From assembly GCA_001002325.1 (NCBI GenBank), contig LCNZ01000005.1, positions 18,274 through 82,273 on the forward strand: a stretch of DNA of 64,000 nucleotides. The letters are read 5' to 3'. The notes below the pieces were generated by a model. The model did not search any database and had not been told where the DNA came from. It saw only the letters and a program-made list of their open reading frames with translations. A program made the position numbers and the translations under genes. Origin of the DNA: Candidatus Amesbacteria bacterium GW2011_GWB1_47_19 (GTDB lineage Bacteria; Patescibacteriota; Microgenomatia; CAZETR01; Amesbacteraceae). This document shows, piece after piece, positions 55,432 through 63,500 of the stretch. The number at the start of each line of letters is the position of its first letter. Positions within the stretch are counted from its first letter, which is position 1.

Positions 55432-57745
55432 AAGGATGATTAGTTTTTAATGAAATAAGCTTTTCCTCACAATGGTATACGATTTCCCGGGTGCGGGCAA
55501 TAGCGTCAGGATTAACAGAGATGCTGGTAATACCCCAGGAAACGAGTTTTTCCACCAGATCCGGATACTGGGAGGGTGCCTGACCGCAAATACTGCAAAG
55601 AATTCCTCTTTTGACACAGGTTTTGATGGTTTTTTCTAATGCCCAGAGCACTGCAGGGTTCAGTTCACTGAACTGGGATGCGACTTCTGAGTTGTCACGG
55701 TCTATTCCCAGAATCAGCATGGTGAGGTCGTTACTGCCGATAGATACGCCGTCGATACCGACATCAATGAAGTCGTCCAGAAGGATGACGTTGGCCGGAA
55801 TTTCCACCATCATGTAAAGCTTGAAAGATGAAGATCGATAGAGACCGGCGGCAGCTACCAATTTTTTTACTTCGGTCAGTTCAAATACGGTAGATACGAA
55901 AGGTATCATCAAATGCAGATTTTTCAGGTCCATTTTGTGACGGACGAGTTTAATGGCTTCCAATTCCAAATTGAATACCTCCGGGGTTTTGATATAACGG
56001 AATGCTCCCCTGAAACCGAGCATAGGATTGGATTCTTCTGGTTCGAACTTCTCCCCTCCCTTAAGAGCCCGGTATTCGTTGGTTTTGAAATCTGTTGCCC
56101 GGTAAATCACAGGGCGGGGGTGGAAGGCTTTGCAAAAGATGCCGATGTCTTGAGCCAACTTATTTATAAATTGAAGGCTTTTACCCTCGGCGATGAGTTT
56201 TTTGGGATGAATGCCGATACCGGCTATCATGAATTCAGCCCGCAGGAGACCAACACCGTCGACGTGGATGGTGGAGATTTTTTCCGCCAGATCAGGCTCG
56301 GCCAAATTGACATAAATTTTGGTTGCGGTTTTTAATAAAGAATCCGGAGGCGGTTTTTTGGGATCGGACTGAGCTACCTGTATGGAAGATCGGGGTAATG
56401 AACCTTTGAAAACTTCCCCCGTGACTCCATTTACGGTGATAATCATACCTTCTTTAAGGAATTTGGTGGCCGTGGTGGTGCCGACTACACAGGGTACACC
56501 TAATTCCCGGGAAACGATGGCAGCATGGGAGGTTAGCCCACCCCGGTTGGTAACTATTGCCGAGGCCCGTTTCATGGCCGGGACAAAGTCTGGTGTGGTC
56601 ATATCGGTTACCAAAATGTCGCCTGTTTTGACTTTGTCCAAATGTTTGGTATCCGGAACCAGGCGGACTGGCCCCGAAGCTATTCCGGGGGATGCGGGGG
56701 CTCCGGTAAGTATTGATTTACCGAGATTTTTTGTCAGATCTGCGGGTACGGCGGACTGTTTTTCACCCAAAGTAGTAATGGGCCGGCTCTGGGTGATAAA
56801 CAAGCGATCCTTATATAAAGCCCATTCTATGTCCTGGGGAAAAAAATAATGATGATGGACCTTTTTTCCGATTTTGGCCAGTTCAATAATATATTTATCC
56901 GATAATTTCTGGTGTTTGCGACGGGAACGGGGAACCGGCAGTTGTTTGACACCCAAGGTTTTCCTGACTTCCATCACTTCCTGATTGCTGATTTGGCGCG
57001 AACGGATTTCCAGATCTGACTTTGAGACTTCATAATGATCGGGAGTAACCACACCCTGAACAATATAATCACCCAGGCCATAAATGGCTTCTATCACCAG
57101 AAGGTTTTTGTCCTGGGTTATGGGGTCGATTGTGAACATGACTCCCGAGACTTCTGATTGAACCATCTGCTGAACAGGAACGGCAATACCGACTTTGAAA
57201 TGGTCGAATTTTTTTTGGACCCGATAGAAAATGCTTCTTTCACCGAAAAGCGACAGCCAACACTCCTTAACTTTTAAAAGGACGTTGGAGTCTCCTGAAA
57301 TGTTGAGATAAGATTCCTGCTGACCGGCAAACGAAGCGTCCGGCAAATCCTCGGCGGTGGCAGATGAACGGACAGCCACGGGAATATTTGACCCCAGATT
57401 CCAGTGATCAATATTGAGTTGATGGTAAGCGGAAAATATTTCTGCGGAAACTGCCGGCGGCATTTCGGCGTGATCCAACAAATGCCTGACTTTTTGTGAA
57501 GCCTGTCTGAGCTGTGCCGGGTCCAGGACGTCGACGGAAGACAACAATTGATGGATTTGAGAGCGAAGGCGGTTGTGTTCCAGAAAATTGAAGTAGGCGT
57601 CGGCAATAACCACAAATCCCGGAGGCACGGGAATTCCGGCCGAGGTTAATTCTCCGAGATTGGCTCCTTTACCACCGGCTATATCGATGTCCTCTTTTCC
57701 CAACTGGTCAAACCAGCGGATATATTTATATTTTTTTAATTTCAT
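55418..57745 (-). CDS. ppsA: Phosphoenolpyruvate synthase (pyruvate, water dikinase)
   Basis: N-terminal ATP-grasp GGKGANLGEL, phospho-His domain TNRGGLTSHAAIVSRELGVPCVVG, C-terminal PEP-utilising TIM barrel. 775 aa. Confidence 0.8.
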   Translation of the reverse strand: MKLKKYKYIRWFDQLGKEDIDIAGGKGANLGELTSAGIPVPPGFVVIADAYFNFLEHNRLRSQIHQLLSSVDVLDPAQLRQASQKVRHLLDHAEMPPAVSAEIFSAYHQLNIDHWNLGSNIPVAVRSSATAEDLPDASFAGQQESYLNISGDSNVLLKVKECWLSLFGERSIFYRVQKKFDHFKVGIAVPVQQMVQSEVSGVMFTIDPITQDKNLLVIEAIYGLGDYIVQGVVTPDHYEVSKSDLEIRSRQISNQEVMEVRKTLGVKQLPVPRSRRKHQKLSDKYIIELAKIGKKVHHHYFFPQDIEWALYKDRLFITQSRPITTLGEKQSAVPADLTKNLGKSILTGAPASPGIASGPVRLVPDTKHLDKVKTGDILVTDMTTPDFVPAMKRASAIVTNRGGLTSHAAIVSRELGVPCVVGTTTATKFLKEGMIITVNGVTGEVFKGSLPRSSIQVAQSDPKKPPPDSLLKTATKIYVNLAEPDLAEKISTIHVDGVGLLRAEFMIAGIGIHPKKLIAEGKSLQFINKLAQDIGIFCKAFHPRPVIYRATDFKTNEYRALKGGEKFEPEESNPMLGFRGAFRYIKTPEVFNLELEAIKLVRHKMDLKNLHLMIPFVSTVFELTEVKKLVAAAGLYRSSSFKLYMMVEIPANVILLDDFIDVGIDGVSIGSNDLTMLILGIDRDNSEVASQFSELNPAVLWALEKTIKTCVKRGILCSICGQAPSQYPDLVEKLVSWGITSISVNPDAIARTREIVYHCEEKLISLKTNHPYGQT

Positions 57746-60122
57746 CCTTGTACCAGTCTACCCAAGGAATAGGTCCGGGGTCAATGTGATTTAACAGAGA
57801 TAAATAATAAGCTATAAAACTACCGGTCTGTACCAAATCCATCGACTCAAAGAAACGGGACGGCCCGACAGGTTTGAGGCTTATGACGGGTAAGTGATGG
57901 CGAGTTACGGCAGAAACTGTGACAGGCAGAGTGCGGTTAATTTCCGGGTTATAAAGATCGGAGCCGATAATAACAAAAACCAGGTTTTGGGGAAGAGTTG
58001 AAGGAAAAGTCAATCCTTCCAACAAGTGGTGGTTGGCTTCGGGAACGTCAAACAGAACCGCAAATGTCTTGGCGTTTTCATTTATCTGATTTTTAAATCC
58101 ATGCGCCGGCCCTTTGAGATGTTCTGAGGCAATGAGGACAGGGATGCGGCCGACCAGCTGTTTGGCCAGATTGAAATATGAGTCGGCTAATTCCTGACGT
58201 TTTTTCAGGAAATCGGGCAAATGGTTTAGGTCCTTTATGGGATGAATCAGGCGGCATCGGGAAAGCAATGTGATCAATGCCAGTATGCTGTAACCTAAAC
58301 CCATACGAGGCTGGGTGGAGGGGTTTGCATCAGTTGAAAAAACATAGTGAGGCAGATTTTGGTCGAGGGCAACTTCGGCCAACTTTCCTCCACTGGTAAG
58401 AATATAAATTTGGGCTCCTCGGCTACGGGCTTCGGCCAGTGAGGTGAGAGTCTCTTCGGTATTACCGGAGTAACTGGATATGACTACCAAAGAATTATTG
58501 TCGACAAAATTCGGTAAATGGTATTCAGTCGAAACTACGATAGGGATTTTCAGCTGCTGGCGCTCCAAACCGGCGATAATCCGCCCACCCAGGGCGGATC
58601 CACCCATTCCGGAAATAACGATGTTTTTGGACAGGAAACATGATTCGGGAATATACTGCTGTACCAGATCTCTGATAACCTGGGAACATTGGTCCGGAAA
58701 GGAGGTAATCGAATCACCTACCCTGAGAGAATCCTGGGACTCAAGTTCGGACAGAGATTGATAACCTGAAGTGGTTGTATTAACGGAGGGATTGATAAGA
58801 CCTTTCAGCCAGGCAAGATTTTCCTGGCCGAGTTTTTCACAGCGGGATTTATCGTTACTTTGAACGTACACTCTGAATTCGGGCGCATTACCGGATCCGC
58901 GGAATAACAGCCAATCATGATTGTTCAGTATTACTTTCAGACCGTCCGTGGCGTCAATATCATGAGAGGAATATTTTTCGCGAACCCGGTCGAGAATGTA
59001 GGCATATTTGGAAAAAGGACAGTCTGATTTTTCGCGGAAAAGATAGAATTTTGGGAGTGTGGCGACAGATCGGGAAAGACTGCCTCCCCGGTGTTTGAGG
59101 TAGTTGAGCATTTTTATAAGAGTAGAGCCTCCGTCCCGGCCGTAAAATATTTCACTGCTGATACCGCCGCCATTGGCTTCGAACCCGAATTTTGAACCAT
59201 AACGTTTCATGGCTTCTATAACAAATGTGGAGCCGACTTTGGTACGGTAAACCTTTTTACCCAGGGCATCCACTACGGAGCTGGTACTGACGGGGGTAAC
59301 AAAAGAAGCAGAGTCACTAACAGATGCCAATAAAGAGCAGGAGTAGTCACCGGGAATATAATTTCCCTGCTCGTCGATAAAAACAATGCGATCACCGTCA
59401 ACATCAAATCCCAACCCCAGATCCGCACCTTTGGCCAATATGAGACGTGAGGCCTCTAAAAAAGAGGTGGAAATTTCCGTGTCACGGGGAACAAAATGAG
59501 GCGCCTGGATATCACATTCTTCGGTAGTGATGAAATCAAGACCCAGATCCGAAAGCAGAGCAGGCATGATTTGCGATTGGGTACCATTGGCAGTGTCCAG
59601 GACAATTTTCCAGGAGGGATAAGGCGTGTCTGCCAAATTCTTTAACATATCCAGATACAAATCCCTGGCTGCGTCGGATCTTGTCACCACCGGAATGACC
59701 TGGTTATCAGATGCAGGTGCGTCGTGTTGTGTAAATAAATTCTCGATTTCAATTTCCTGTTTTTTGTTGACTTCCTCACCGTCAAATAAAAATTTAACCC
59801 CGTTTAAATTCGCGGTAATATGGCTGCCGGTAATCATAACCGCTCCACCCAGGTAACCGGTTTGCTTTAAAAAGTAGGTGAGGCAGGGTGTGGGAATCAC
59901 ACCCTGGTCGGATATTTCCCAACCACATGCTGATAAACCTCTGATAACGTCAGTTTTAATGCGGGGGCTGCTGTCGCGGGGATCCATAGCAACAGCGATT
60001 TGGCCGGTTTTCCCTTTGGAAATGAGCCATGAACCGTAGGTATATCCCAGGCGAAAACAGAATTGGGGAGTGAAAAGCTGATCTGCTGGGCCACGAACAC
60101 CGCTGGTACCGAAAAGTTTCAT
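57726..60122 (-). CDS. Fusion protein: alpha-D-phosphohexomutase (PMM/PGM) N-terminal half plus bifunctional phosphoglucose/phosphomannose isomerase (SIS) C-terminal half
   Basis: N-terminal GTSGVRG and the TGSHITANLNG phosphoserine loop. C-terminal GMGGSALGGR plus the PGI/PMI C-domain. Confidence 0.7.
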   Translation of the reverse strand: MKLFGTSGVRGPADQLFTPQFCFRLGYTYGSWLISKGKTGQIAVAMDPRDSSPRIKTDVIRGLSACGWEISDQGVIPTPCLTYFLKQTGYLGGAVMITGSHITANLNGVKFLFDGEEVNKKQEIEIENLFTQHDAPASDNQVIPVVTRSDAARDLYLDMLKNLADTPYPSWKIVLDTANGTQSQIMPALLSDLGLDFITTEECDIQAPHFVPRDTEISTSFLEASRLILAKGADLGLGFDVDGDRIVFIDEQGNYIPGDYSCSLLASVSDSASFVTPVSTSSVVDALGKKVYRTKVGSTFVIEAMKRYGSKFGFEANGGGISSEIFYGRDGGSTLIKMLNYLKHRGGSLSRSVATLPKFYLFREKSDCPFSKYAYILDRVREKYSSHDIDATDGLKVILNNHDWLLFRGSGNAPEFRVYVQSNDKSRCEKLGQENLAWLKGLINPSVNTTTSGYQSLSELESQDSLRVGDSITSFPDQCSQVIRDLVQQYIPESCFLSKNIVISGMGGSALGGRIIAGLERQQLKIPIVVSTEYHLPNFVDNNSLVVISSYSGNTEETLTSLAEARSRGAQIYILTSGGKLAEVALDQNLPHYVFSTDANPSTQPRMGLGYSILALITLLSRCRLIHPIKDLNHLPDFLKKRQELADSYFNLAKQLVGRIPVLIASEHLKGPAHGFKNQINENAKTFAVLFDVPEANHHLLEGLTFPSTLPQNLVFVIIGSDLYNPEINRTLPVTVSAVTRHHLPVISLKPVGPSRFFESMDLVQTGSFIAYYLSLLNHIDPGPIPWVDWYKDEIKKI

Positions 60123-60135
60123 AGGCAGGACAAAA

Positions 60136-60852
60136 TTATCCTACATTTTTTAGGACCCAAAGTTCAAGAGCAGAAGCCAAATCGAAAGGGGAAGAAGATG
60201 TTTTTTGGGCATAATCCAGAGACAACAAACGGTCATTGGCCATAATCAATCCTTCAAGAGTAAAGCGGTCAGACAGAGATTTTAGTGATGACAATTGCCA
60301 GGCCGGGAAATTTCCTGTACCGTCTTTGACCATAATGAGTTTGTGTAACTGACCGGCCAACAGGGAAAAAACCAATTCGGGAGGTGAAACCTCCAATGCT
60401 CTGTGCAATGCCGGAAGGTTTAATGTATCCAGAAAACGGAAAACATATTTGGGATACTCAAATTTTCGGATATGAGATGAAGGAAAATCCCTGATCTGGG
60501 AGGATACATCCTTCGGTTCCCAAATTGAAACGGGAGAGGAGAGATGTGAAAGGAAATATTTAATTAGTTCACTCTTTTCAGAAGAAGGGCGGCGGGAAAA
60601 GATTTCTTCGACAAATATAGCTTTTGAATCGTTAAAAAGCGAATCCGATTCAAAGGAAAATGTCAGGTCGGGAAGTGTCAGGGTATGACCTGACAGAGTA
60701 ATAAGATGTTTATCTTCGGCGACAGCTGTAGATTTAAGCTTGAGGAAAAGTTCCCTGGAAGACAATTGGTTGTCGCCGTGGATGATGATTAATCCGGGAG
60801 ACGGGTTACTCATATGATTTGACGGAAAGTGAGTAATAAAGCTGATCGACAA
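60136..60852 (-). CDS. DNA polymerase III delta subunit-like (tentative)
   Basis: LIIIHGDN N-terminal motif and helical C-terminal part. Short. Weak call. Confidence 0.3.
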   Translation of the reverse strand: MSISFITHFPSNHMSNPSPGLIIIHGDNQLSSRELFLKLKSTAVAEDKHLITLSGHTLTLPDLTFSFESDSLFNDSKAIFVEEIFSRRPSSEKSELIKYFLSHLSSPVSIWEPKDVSSQIRDFPSSHIRKFEYPKYVFRFLDTLNLPALHRALEVSPPELVFSLLAGQLHKLIMVKDGTGNFPAWQLSSLKSLSDRFTLEGLIMANDRLLSLDYAQKTSSSPFDLASALELWVLKNVG

Positions 60853-61204
60853 GATCGTGATAGTGGCGGAAAGTCCTGCGTCCAGCGAGCCGCGAACGGT
60901 GCGGGACTAGAGCGCCGGAAAAAGTTTTTGGTACGTGTATTAATTCGTGTATAAGAACTTTTTCCTGGTCGGAAAGAGAAAGACGGTCAAATTTTTCGGC
61001 GATCACCTCCAGGCAATAATGAGGAGGGGTGTCCAGGGCAATCTGCCAAATTCGGGGAAGACTCCAAATTCTGGCAGTCGACCGTCCCTGAGAACCTTGG
61101 CTTCTGAAGCATATAATTCTTTCAGCGCGGATATGAGTCAATCGCAGTTGACTCACCAGAAAACTTATACGACTGGCAATGTCCGGAGCCGGTTTCCACT
61201 GCAT
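60806..61204 (-). CDS. putative HExxH metal-dependent hydrolase (DUF45/YgjP-like)
   Basis: LIHELIHVP motif. Confidence 0.4.
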   Translation of the reverse strand: MQWKPAPDIASRISFLVSQLRLTHIRAERIICFRSQGSQGRSTARIWSLPRIWQIALDTPPHYCLEVIAEKFDRLSLSDQEKVLIHELIHVPKTFSGALVPHRSRLAGRRTFRHYHDLVDQLYYSLSVKSYE

Positions 61205-61234: not shown

Positions 61235-61492
61235 TTATCCGATTTTGACGATTTCATCCCCCGGTTTAACTGCCTGAGCGACTTTGAGTCCGATAGTGTC
61301 ACCCTTTTTGGCTGAAGTGACCTGCTGGTGTTCTACCTGCATAGAGTCAACTTTTTGAGAAAATTCGGCAGAACCGGAGACTCGGATATTTTCGCCCAGA
61401 GTCAGCCCGGCCGTGAGATCTACAACGGCTACTCCGATGTGATCGTAGTAGTGGGTGACATTACCTGCTTTGATGTCTGACGTGGAAATCAC
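61235..61492 (-). CDS. hypothetical small beta-barrel protein (EF-Tu domain-2-like)
   Basis: 85 aa ORF. Pattern only. Confidence 0.3.
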   Translation of the reverse strand: MISTSDIKAGNVTHYYDHIGVAVVDLTAGLTLGENIRVSGSAEFSQKVDSMQVEHQQVTSAKKGDTIGLKVAQAVKPGDEIVKIG

Positions 61493-61527: not shown

Positions 61528-62991
61528 TCAGAGGGCAAGAGAAACATTGTCATTGACCTTGATCCCATGGGTAGCAATGAAACCGGCGTTGACTTCCAGA
61601 ACCTGGCTTACCGGGACATCAGGTAAAATAATCAGTGGCTGGCCAGAAGTAGCAGACGGCGGTAAAACGTCCGGAGTGAGTCCGACTACCCGGTCTCCGT
61701 TGATCCAGATAAAGTCCAGGGGGAAGATCATATCCTTCATCCAAAACTGATGCAGGCCGGGTTGGGGAAAATTAAAAAGCATACCGTGATCAGGCGAAAG
61801 ATTTTCCCGGTTTGACAAACCGACAGATCTTTCAATTTGAGAATCCGCAATCTCGACCTTTATCAGGGTGTTACCAATAGTTAACAGAGATGCGGTACCA
61901 GTTAACTGGCGGAAAAATCGGCGCAACCGGCCGAGGATATCTTTTCCTGATATTAAGGGAACCGGGGAAACACTGACGACTGGAGCAACAGAAGGAACCG
62001 GCTGGATTGACAGGAGAGGACTTCCCGGTGTTTTGGGGAAAGAGAATATGTCACGGTAAGATGCAGTAGGCTGACCCTGTTTATCCATCAAAGAAAATCC
62101 GGCAAAATCCCCGGCAGCGGCATTTAATAGAAAGGGAGTTATAGCTACAATATTCTTTTCGGTCCATACGGAGGTAAGAGCAGTTGAAAAAAATGACGGA
62201 TCGCCGGGTTTGCCGGTTTCGGTTATAAATACCGGTTTATCCGGGAAACCCAGAGATTTCAAGAAGGACAGCTCATAACGGTAGCTGGTGATGCCGTAGC
62301 GGGAAGTAGAAAATACTGAAGCGGTGTAACCGGGATTGGGATATGCATGAACCGAAAGGCCGTCTAGACTTCCGTACCAGTCAGGTTGAAAAGATGTAAG
62401 CAACCGGTAATATTTTAAGGCGTCAAGGGAAGTATGGTTTGACGGAGCGGACATATCAAGGCCGGAACTGAGAAGAAAATAATCCTCGGAACGGCTTTTG
62501 AAGATTGTATGAGCATCCAGGATAATATTTGAGTATTCCGGAGGAGATACATAACCCCCCCATTCAGCCGCATGATTAGGCTCGTTGAAGAGGATAATAT
62601 AGCGGTTTTTAACCGGCCAGGAAAGGTTATTCAGAAAGTTGGCAAAATCCAACAGATCAGAAGCGGCAGGTGTAACCCACCGGCCAGAACCGGCATAAGT
62701 AGCCAGACGAATAACCGGGATTACGTGCAAAGTCCGGCACTGATTAAAGAAGAGAGACCATTTTTCCAAATCCCGGTCGTCAATACGAATGGGAATTGTG
62801 ACATAGCCCCAATCTCCACCGGAACTGTTTACCAGCTTAGATGCTTCAACTATTTCAGAAGGCTCGAGAATATGAACCCCGATACGATTGTTGGGTACGG
62901 ATAACGGATTATATATTGCTGCCGAAGTGACCGGCCACAAAATTAACACAGAGATATAAACCACGAGAGATAAAAAAATTAATCGCAGCAT
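61528..62991 (-). CDS. Secreted glycoside hydrolase (clan GH-A TIM barrel) fused to C-terminal DUF192 domain
   Basis: ILFNEPNH (acid/base Glu) and FITETG (nucleophile Glu) motifs. C-terminal DHGMLFNF...FWMKDMIFPLDFIWI...VLEVNAGF matches DUF192. Confidence 0.6.
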   Translation of the reverse strand: MLRLIFLSLVVYISVLILWPVTSAAIYNPLSVPNNRIGVHILEPSEIVEASKLVNSSGGDWGYVTIPIRIDDRDLEKWSLFFNQCRTLHVIPVIRLATYAGSGRWVTPAASDLLDFANFLNNLSWPVKNRYIILFNEPNHAAEWGGYVSPPEYSNIILDAHTIFKSRSEDYFLLSSGLDMSAPSNHTSLDALKYYRLLTSFQPDWYGSLDGLSVHAYPNPGYTASVFSTSRYGITSYRYELSFLKSLGFPDKPVFITETGKPGDPSFFSTALTSVWTEKNIVAITPFLLNAAAGDFAGFSLMDKQGQPTASYRDIFSFPKTPGSPLLSIQPVPSVAPVVSVSPVPLISGKDILGRLRRFFRQLTGTASLLTIGNTLIKVEIADSQIERSVGLSNRENLSPDHGMLFNFPQPGLHQFWMKDMIFPLDFIWINGDRVVGLTPDVLPPSATSGQPLIILPDVPVSQVLEVNAGFIATHGIKVNDNVSLAL

Positions 62992-62999
62992 GAGGTTAA

Positions 63000-63500
63000 T
63001 TATACCCGGCAGGGAAGATCGGTTTTGCGGATGTGACAGATGGCCAGTGCCAAGGCGTCGGCCATATCATCGAAGTGGGACTTGGTGCCCTTTTTTTCGC
63101 GGAATTTAAGCAGTTGTTTAACTTTTTTTTTCATCACTTTTTTATCAGCTTTGCCTGATCCCCCAACATAGAGTTTTACCTGCATCGGAGTGTAGTCAAA
63201 TACCGGTAAGCCGTGGTGGTGAATTGCCAGCTTGATAACACCTATTGCCTGGCCGACTGAAATGGCAGTCAGGGCGTTGGTGGCAAAAAATAGCCGTTCG
63301 ATGGAAACCACATCGGGAGAATGTTTGTCAATGATTTCCGAAATACCCCGGTAGATTATATCCAGTCTCTGACCGTGCGGCAATTCCTTGGAGGTGGAGA
63401 CCAGACCGAAATCAAGCAGTGTATAATTTTCACCGCCCAGGTGATCTATGACTCCGAAACCAGTAGTTGCAGTGCCCGGATCAATTCCTAAAATACGCAT
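63000..63500 (-). CDS. ruvC: Holliday junction resolvase RuvC
   Basis: MRILGIDPGTATTGFGVI... with catalytic Asp/Glu positions. 166 aa. Confidence 0.9.
   Translation of the reverse strand: MRILGIDPGTATTGFGVIDHLGGENYTLLDFGLVSTSKELPHGQRLDIIYRGISEIIDKHSPDVVSIERLFFATNALTAISVGQAIGVIKLAIHHHGLPVFDYTPMQVKLYVGGSGKADKKVMKKKVKQLLKFREKKGTKSHFDDMADALALAICHIRKTDLPCRV

Follow-up and report, generated by a model that had tools for sequence, protein, structure and literature searches.

What does a small domain of no assigned function do at the end of an exported glycosidase, and does the pairing say anything about that domain? The question is raised by a gene at 61528..62991 (-) in a 64,000-nucleotide (nt) stretch of contig LCNZ01000005.1 from Candidatus Amesbacteria bacterium GW2011_GWB1_47_19, which we refer to as the window. 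An earlier reading of the sequence, made from the letters only (the sequence-only reading), had described its product as a secreted glycoside hydrolase (GH) of clan GH-A fused to a C-terminal DUF192 domain. We are highly confident of this molecular identity, a protein composed of a GH-A and a DUF192 module.

Module layout of the protein

The gene is a complete open reading frame (ORF) of 487 amino acids (aa) plus a stop codon, starting with ATG. The fusion was confirmed. The coordinates given for the ORF are exact, and its reading frame is unbroken. No second copy of the GH domain or of DUF192 was found elsewhere in the window.

The product consists of five parts. It begins with a signal peptide or signal-anchor (aa 1-24, MLRLIFLSLVVYISVLILWPVTSA followed by A; 62920..62991 (-)), which ends in an AxA-type site and is the sole hydrophobic segment of the protein that resembles a transmembrane (TM) helix. 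The clan GH-A (β/α)8 catalytic domain follows (aa 25-326; 62014..62919 (-)), and then a disordered linker rich in Pro, Ser and Val (aa 327-350, LSIQPVPSVAPVVSVSPVPLISG; 61942..62013 (-)). A cationic amphipathic helix, recognized by its hydrophobic moment and predicted as helical (aa 351-365, DILGRLRRFFRQLTG; 61897..61941 (-)), leads into the DUF192 (PF02643) β-barrel domain (aa 366-487; 61531..61896 (-)).

The structure was predicted with AlphaFold2 from 40 homologues, which gave a mean predicted local distance difference test score (pLDDT) of 86.4, with values >90 over most of aa 35-320. Such a model had been proposed as a check in the sequence-only reading, and it shows the barrel, the linker and the DUF192 β domain. 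From the N-terminus it comprises a helix (aa 2-18), eight strands that alternate with helices, a disordered part (aa 327-350, pLDDT <50), another helix (aa 352-364) and a β domain (aa 368-486).

Catalytic signature of the N-terminal domain

Neither Pfam nor NCBIfam has a match to the query's N-terminal domain (N-domain) in aa 1-~340, and a phmmer search of the query against PDB sequences returned only the DUF192 structures 3pjy and 3m7a, leaving the N-domain unmatched. As the first ~340 residues thus carry no database annotation, the glycosidase claim needed other kinds of test.

An Asn-Glu pair after strand 4, a His-x-Tyr at the end of strand 6 and a Glu at the end of strand 7 are the defining layout of the “4/7 superfamily” in CAZy. 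The N-domain carries the motifs NEP (aa 136-138), HAYPNP (aa 215-220) and ITETG (aa 256-260), and in the model these fall where the layout places them. Strand 4 (aa 130-133) directly precedes N136-E137 (62581..62586 (-)), of which E137 is the predicted acid/base. Strand 6 (aa 211-215) ends with the GH-A type His-x-Tyr, H215-A-Y217 (62341..62349 (-)). The predicted nucleophile, E258 (62218..62220 (-)), lies inside strand 7 (aa 254-259), at its end. N136/E137, H215/Y217 and E258 are invariant across the 40 close homologues, and the same catalytic set is invariant in 25 distant stand-alone members of the family, in which the mean column identity is 32%. W61, W78, W125, W144, W276 and F287 are invariant too and would line the predicted active site. 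Both motifs on which the sequence-only reading had relied, NEP and ITE(T)G, are therefore present, and the catalytic Glu of each is invariant in homologues.

We built a family profile from the 25 distant stand-alone sequences and searched it against all PDB sequences. PslG was the sole significant match (E 1.3e-3), local over 46 residues. In the profile alignment the family motif “vfNEpN” pairs with “VWNEPN” of PslG, whose Glu is E165, and “ITETGW” pairs with “STEWGW”, whose Glu is E276. In the PslG chain 111 residues separate these two glutamates, exactly the spacing of E165 and E276 (276-165). The PslG double mutant E165Q/E276Q is catalytically inactive (PMC4928890). The “ITENG” nucleophile motif of GH1 also aligns to the family profile, with E-values that are sub-threshold.

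Taken together, the N-domain has the glycosidase fold of clan GH-A and every residue of the catalytic signature, and the earlier description of a TIM-barrel glycosidase stands on the (β/α)8 model, this signature and the PslG profile match. By clan membership the barrel would use a retaining double-displacement mechanism, with its two carboxylates about 5.5 Å apart.

Relation to known glycosidase families

The sequence-only reading had held that a failure of the N-domain to match any GH family would count against it. The query indeed lacks a Pfam match in this region, yet the family profile matches PslG and relatives of the query weakly match GH models. Among the 25 family members, eight weakly match Pfam Cellulase (GH5) and five match Glyco_hydro_cc, the GH128 core (PF11790). 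The distant member P0223 exceeds the Glyco_hydro_cc gathering threshold (27.3 bits vs 21), and the close relative P0049 scores 16.6 bits against PF11790, below that 21-bit threshold. The query itself has no match to PF11790 and so falls outside GH128 as this model delimits it; the Glyco_hydro_39 Pfam model gave no match to the query or to the 25 relatives.

PslG of Pseudomonas aeruginosa, a GH39 enzyme, is the best structural and sequence relative of the N-domain. The structural identity of the barrel to GH39 enzymes (PslG, XynB1 and BACCELL_00856, 5jvk) is only 13-14%. GH39 enzymes have a C-terminal β-sandwich that packs on the barrel. Here, unlike in GH39, the model ends in a DUF192 barrel that a disordered linker joins to the rest; this C-terminal domain does not resemble the GH39 accessory domains, and no packed C-terminal β-sandwich is seen. 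GH128 (Glyco_hydro_cc) enzymes are β-1,3-glucanases, and relative to them the barrel of the present family is ~50 residues longer.

As judged by profile scores, the N-domain family is related to GH128 and is not a member on current models. Present models place the N-domain in none of GH39, GH128 and GH5, and it behaves as a separate divergent family that sits between GH39 and GH128, a candidate new family of clan GH-A.

The DUF192 domain

The Pfam model of DUF192 (PF02643) matched aa 377-484 with an E-value of 8.8e-27. The score of 93.5 bits exceeds the cutoff of 27, and the alignment takes in model positions 1-95 of 96; NCBIfam added nothing useful to this annotation of the query. The domain has the fold of the solved DUF192 structures and intact signature residues (G391-L392, R395, GMLF 403-406, FWMK 416-419, D426, W429, E466, G470 and D481). 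The match claimed by the sequence-only reading is thus not spurious.

The signature elements GL.xR, GMLF, FWMK, LD..W and LE..G are 85-100% conserved in fused and stand-alone sets alike, which indicates that the fused copy is under the same constraints. Stand-alone DUF192 proteins (3pjy, R01717; 3m7a, Saro_0823; COG1430/UPF0127) share with the domain studied here the Pfam family, the fold, the conserved residues and, as predicted for our protein, an extracytoplasmic location. They differ in being single-domain proteins of 120-185 aa with a signal peptide of their own, which in our protein is replaced by the GH module, the linker and the amphipathic helix. That DUF192 usually occurs as a small stand-alone secreted protein, as the sequence-only reading had said, agrees with a search from one stand-alone DUF192, whose best 120 relatives are all single-domain. 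Saro_0823, the protein of 3m7a, has been found periplasmic by experiment, with its AXA signal peptide cleaved (PMC3608174).

Slr0280 (5h3k), BPSS2145 (6ozd) and mt-LAF8 were considered as true DUF192 proteins and rejected, as a DUF192 sequence profile misses them and the likeness is structural only. In trypanosomes a mitoribosome assembly factor is structurally related to DUF192. Crystal structures of DUF192 have been available since 2010, and to our knowledge no function has been assigned to it. Our literature search found no functional study of DUF192 and no report pairing Amesbacteria with a glycoside hydrolase.

N-terminus, linker and amphipathic helix

The segment at aa 1-24 is the only hydrophobic one in the protein. 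It has a mean Kyte-Doolittle value of about 2.4 and an Arg in its n-region, and ends in TSA before A; no lipobox Cys was found in it. In homologues a comparable h-region precedes small-x-Ala. These features suggest Sec export with probable cleavage of the signal peptide.

The linker differs in length and sequence between homologues. Directly after it, aa 351-361 (DILGRLRRFFR) have the top helical hydrophobic moment of the protein, 0.87 compared with a 95th percentile of 0.50. The unfused members P0121, P0122, L050 and L086 end at their extreme C-terminus with the same kind of helix, from which we conclude that the helix belongs to the GH module. This cationic, amphipathic and Arg-rich segment (aa 351-365) may serve as an in-plane membrane or wall anchor.

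Within the ORF, a terminator-like hairpin with a stem of only 5 pairs and a T-run (61918-61934 (-)) marks the junction of GH and DUF192, the point at which unfused GH genes stop. The hairpin is probably coincidental; terminator-like matches across the region occur at chance level (4 found, 2.9 expected).

Linkage of GH and DUF192 across genomes

We surveyed 80 related loci taken from GTDB species representatives. DUF192 is fused to the GH in 21 of the 80 (L006-L025 and L035), and the fusion marks an Amesbacteria-centred clade. Two other loci hold the same pair as separate genes. At L050 a GH gene (378 aa) is followed after 12 bp by a separate 145-aa DUF192 gene with its own signal sequence, and the related L086 (Gottesmanbacteria) has the same split pair, with the GH matching the family hidden Markov model (HMM) at an E-value of about 1e-130. 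The gap between the split genes is 12-16 bp in these two loci, and each gene has a signal sequence. A complete Woesebacteria chromosome carries a family member and, ~4 kb downstream in the same orientation, a stand-alone DUF192 gene.

A crude neighbor-joining tree of N-domains placed the query in one large fused clade of 42 sequences and showed four small fused lineages whose nearest neighbors are often unfused. The pattern suggests repeated gain or loss of the fused state; at identities of 45-55% and without support values the tree is too crude to tell multiple gains from multiple losses.

Stand-alone DUF192 genes were seen in several other settings. In L092 (5880-7504) the gene is 30 bp downstream of a Glycos_transf_4 gene of the MraY/WecA family, and in the syntenic L093 (3260-7441) it is ~2.6 kb from a Glycos_transf_4 gene; the proximity hints at another envelope-glycan context. 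On a Parcubacteria contig (L094, 7001-9717) it lies upstream of genes for GAPDH, RpiB, RPE and transketolase, a context that echoes a DUF192-isomerase correlation reported from marine metagenomes. In Daviesbacteria-type loci (the L089, L091 set) it stands between an SNase gene and a phosphoenolpyruvate (PEP)-utilizer gene.

In L050 (2850-3566) and L086 (5057-5791) a gene for a ~240-aa membrane protein with HExxH and a weak likeness to Peptidase_M50B overlaps the separate DUF192 gene by 4 nt, at the stop codon of the latter. We considered a conserved trio of GH, DUF192 and metallopeptidase and rejected it, as this M50B-like protein is unrelated to the PhageMetallopep protein encoded in the window and has only HExxH in common with it.

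Family size, distribution and architectures

When only the N-domain was searched, exhaustively and with HMMER, against 1.84 billion representatives, no more than 476 clusters (50% identity) were matched, and the family is small on this count. Relatives of the N-domain gene are present in at least 428 genomes among GTDB species representatives. Where record titles of these genomes are informative, all are Microgenomates-type Patescibacteria (Amesbacteria, Levybacteria, Beckwithbacteria, Microgenomates), and the family is apparently restricted to this group. The best 120 full-length matches are ~440-760 aa long, with 93-100% query coverage and 48-57% identity, and their named sources are Candidatus Amesbacteria or Patescibacteria. 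Public records name these proteins just “DUF192 domain-containing” or “hypothetical”, and Pfam and NCBIfam models miss the N-domain.

Some records carry other names. L007, L008, L010, L014-L017 and many others have TPA_asm titles of the type “uncultured Gammaproteobacteria/Pseudomonadales bacterium” despite a Patescibacteria gene and synteny, and a few related GTDB records are titled Eisenbacteria or Methylomirabilota. These titles look like placeholder or mislabelled taxonomy.

The most frequent architecture of the family is the GH with an unannotated C-terminal extension of ~230 aa (P0132, P0135 and ~60 other representatives, ~570-aa proteins). Further ones are the stand-alone GH of 330-400 aa, the GH with an extension of ~130-150 aa, Lgt with GH and, as a smaller class, the GH with an Ig-like domain and DUF5667. 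GH with DUF192 accounts for ~10 of the 150 representatives listed, and most members lack DUF192.

In some members a membrane enzyme that serves the biogenesis of envelope glycoconjugates precedes the GH. P0100 is a fusion of Acyl_transf_3, GH and DUF192 (79.6 and 90.1 bits), P0049 one of Bac_transf, GH and DUF192 (172 and 97 bits), and in some members Lgt (205 bits) is fused N-terminally to the GH. The GH “signal peptide” is kept as a connecting TM helix in the Acyl_transf_3, Bac_transf and Lgt fusions, and the three kinds of fusion point to envelope glycan processing. For the Acyl_transf_3-fused relatives we take the AT3-SGNH O-acetyltransferases (OafA, OafB, OatA type) to be a suitable comparison. 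These presumably share with some of the relatives the order of an N-terminal Acyl_transf_3 membrane domain, a TM helix and an extracytoplasmic glycan-acting module. They would differ in the extracytoplasmic part, which is GH-A with DUF192 in the relatives instead of an SGNH esterase/transferase, and the protein of the window has no AT3 domain.

Gene neighborhood

Directly upstream of the gene is that of RuvC (63000..63500 (-)), with a gap of 8 nt from its stop codon to the start of GH-DUF192, and the two are probably co-transcribed. RuvC adjoins the GH gene in the Amesbacteria clade only. A promoter-like site is located upstream of RuvC at 63701-63673; the promoter and terminator scan of the region gave nothing decisive.

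Downstream lies a conserved block (57726..61204 (-)) with genes for PhageMetallopep, a HolA-like protein and a PGM/PMM-PGI fusion. The PhageMetallopep gene (PF18894, 73.9 bits, HExxH; 60806-61204 (-)) is overlapped by 47 nt by the HolA-like gene, which has no Pfam match (60136-60852 (-)). The third gene encodes a 798-aa protein in which PGM/PMM domains I-III are fused to a bacterial PGI (SIS and bact-PGI_C; 57726-60122 (-)). Relatives have at this locus either PGI alone or a split pair of PGM and PGM-PGI genes, and the bifunctional fusion thus varies by lineage. In the 80 loci the order GH, PhageMetallopep, HolA-like, PGM/PGI, often then PPDK and enolase, is kept even in relatives at 43-47% identity, and this synteny extends across Microgenomates. 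Between GH-DUF192 and the metallopeptidase is an 85-aa ORF (61235-61492 (-)) with a weak, sub-threshold match of 18.7 bits to EF-Tu domain 2; a counterpart could be detected at just 7 of the 80 loci.

A polysaccharide-synthesis locus around the GH gene was not found in the window or in the 80 loci, so that the gene does not sit in an exopolysaccharide operon there. A GH-operon setting of the PslG, BcsZ or PelA type was rejected on these grounds, the neighbors of the GH gene in the window and in relatives holding no polysaccharide synthesis/export cluster. The only tie of the GH family to polysaccharide machinery is the Bac_transf or Acyl_transf_3 fusion of some relatives.

Discussion

We propose that the gene encodes an exported GH-A enzyme that acts on a glycan of the cell's own envelope or matrix, with DUF192 as an accessory module, a proposal that we consider somewhat favored as a whole. 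The protein would be exported by Sec as two modules, the GH-A barrel (aa 25-326) and the DUF192 β-barrel (aa 366-487). The barrel would be a retaining glycoside hydrolase, possibly a transglycosylase, with E137 as general acid/base and E258 as nucleophile. DUF192 would be tethered by the disordered linker of ~24 residues and then by the cationic helix, which may rest against the membrane or an anionic wall surface. The enzyme would cleave or trim a polysaccharide that lies outside the cytoplasm and belongs to the envelope or matrix of the cell itself, much as PslG acts on Psl, and DUF192 would work on that polymer too, or in that compartment.

For the envelope-glycan role of the enzyme we see about even chances. 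We favor a glycan of the cell's own envelope because of the repeated fusions to Acyl_transf_3, Bac_transf and Lgt, the cationic amphipathic helix and PslG being the best relative; the class of substrate, like any carbohydrate role of DUF192, is what we infer from such features. The pairing with a GH is a modest clue that DUF192 works on cell-surface carbohydrates. Going further, DUF192 could itself be a carbohydrate-active module, binding or catalytic, with a site formed by the conserved residues R395, K419, D426, E466, W417 and W429, that cooperates with the new, Microgenomates-specific GH-A family on a cell-surface glycan; we offer this as speculation that is unlikely to hold.

Several observations weigh against the proposal. 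The GH gene shows conserved linkage to glycolytic genes and the family has an affinity to GH128; DUF192 is absent within 6 kb in 58 of the 59 unfused GH loci, so that the link to it is not obligatory; and a role of DUF192 as a carbohydrate-binding module (CBM) had to be rejected, as its fold matches no known CBM family. The first two suit a nutrient-scavenging glycanase, in which the exported enzyme would degrade an environmental or host polysaccharide (e.g., β-glucan, as GH128 does) and feed hexoses to a reduced central metabolism. We regard this, the main rival, as somewhat unlikely. The conserved genes that intervene, for the metallopeptidase and the HolA-like protein, are unrelated to catabolism, no sugar transporter was seen beside the GH gene, and housekeeping synteny is weak functional evidence in very small genomes. 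The Acyl_transf_3, Bac_transf and Lgt fusions also suit envelope biogenesis better than foraging. The other two observations would be expected if DUF192 were an unrelated passenger, two exported proteins having merged in a compact genome through loss of a stop codon and of a signal peptide; the fusion would then be uninformative about any carbohydrate role of DUF192. P0121, in which the protein ends after the amphipathic helix and lacks DUF192 at an identical syntenic locus, fits this explanation as well, as do the heterogeneous contexts of stand-alone DUF192 genes and the long linker, which in the model suggests no fixed interdomain contact. Against it, the fusion is kept with an intact DUF192 signature across a large and diverse clade, down to ~45% identity; the pair is fused, adjacent or nearby depending on the lineage, and fused lineages are interleaved with unfused ones, suggesting recurrence. 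On balance we doubt the passenger explanation while taking it seriously.

Two further explanations bear on the protein itself. The barrel might be a pseudoenzyme of clan GH-A, non-catalytic and lectin-like or structural, given that the query matches no curated GH model. The complete signature (Asn-Glu at β4, His-x-Tyr at β6 and Glu at β7) is invariant family-wide, as expected of active enzymes and not of pseudoenzymes, which makes this very improbable. An artefact of assembly or gene calling that joined two genes is scarcely credible: split versions do exist in other lineages and nothing specific speaks for it otherwise, while the frame is uninterrupted and the fusion is full-length, at 94-100% coverage, in >100 clusters that are independent in both sample and assembler, and likewise in 21 GTDB species representatives.

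Nothing is new about the GH-A fold and mechanism or about DUF192 as such. What is new is an unannotated GH-A family, its fusion to DUF192 and the split-gene evidence that ties the two; it is not a new kind of system. What the finding offers is an improved annotation and, for an old DUF, a hypothesis that can be put to the test. The fusion, the split gene pairs and the fusions to envelope enzymes provide a concrete experimental handle on DUF192 function. If DUF192 does cooperate with the GH, the repeated fusion, adjacency and proximity would be a Rosetta-stone signal and would yield the first function for a domain family that spans bacteria and archaea. The surface biology and the episymbiotic way of life of the Microgenomates-type Patescibacteria are poorly understood, and a glycanase that is exported, conserved and syntenic could plausibly take part in remodelling their wall or in their interaction with a host.

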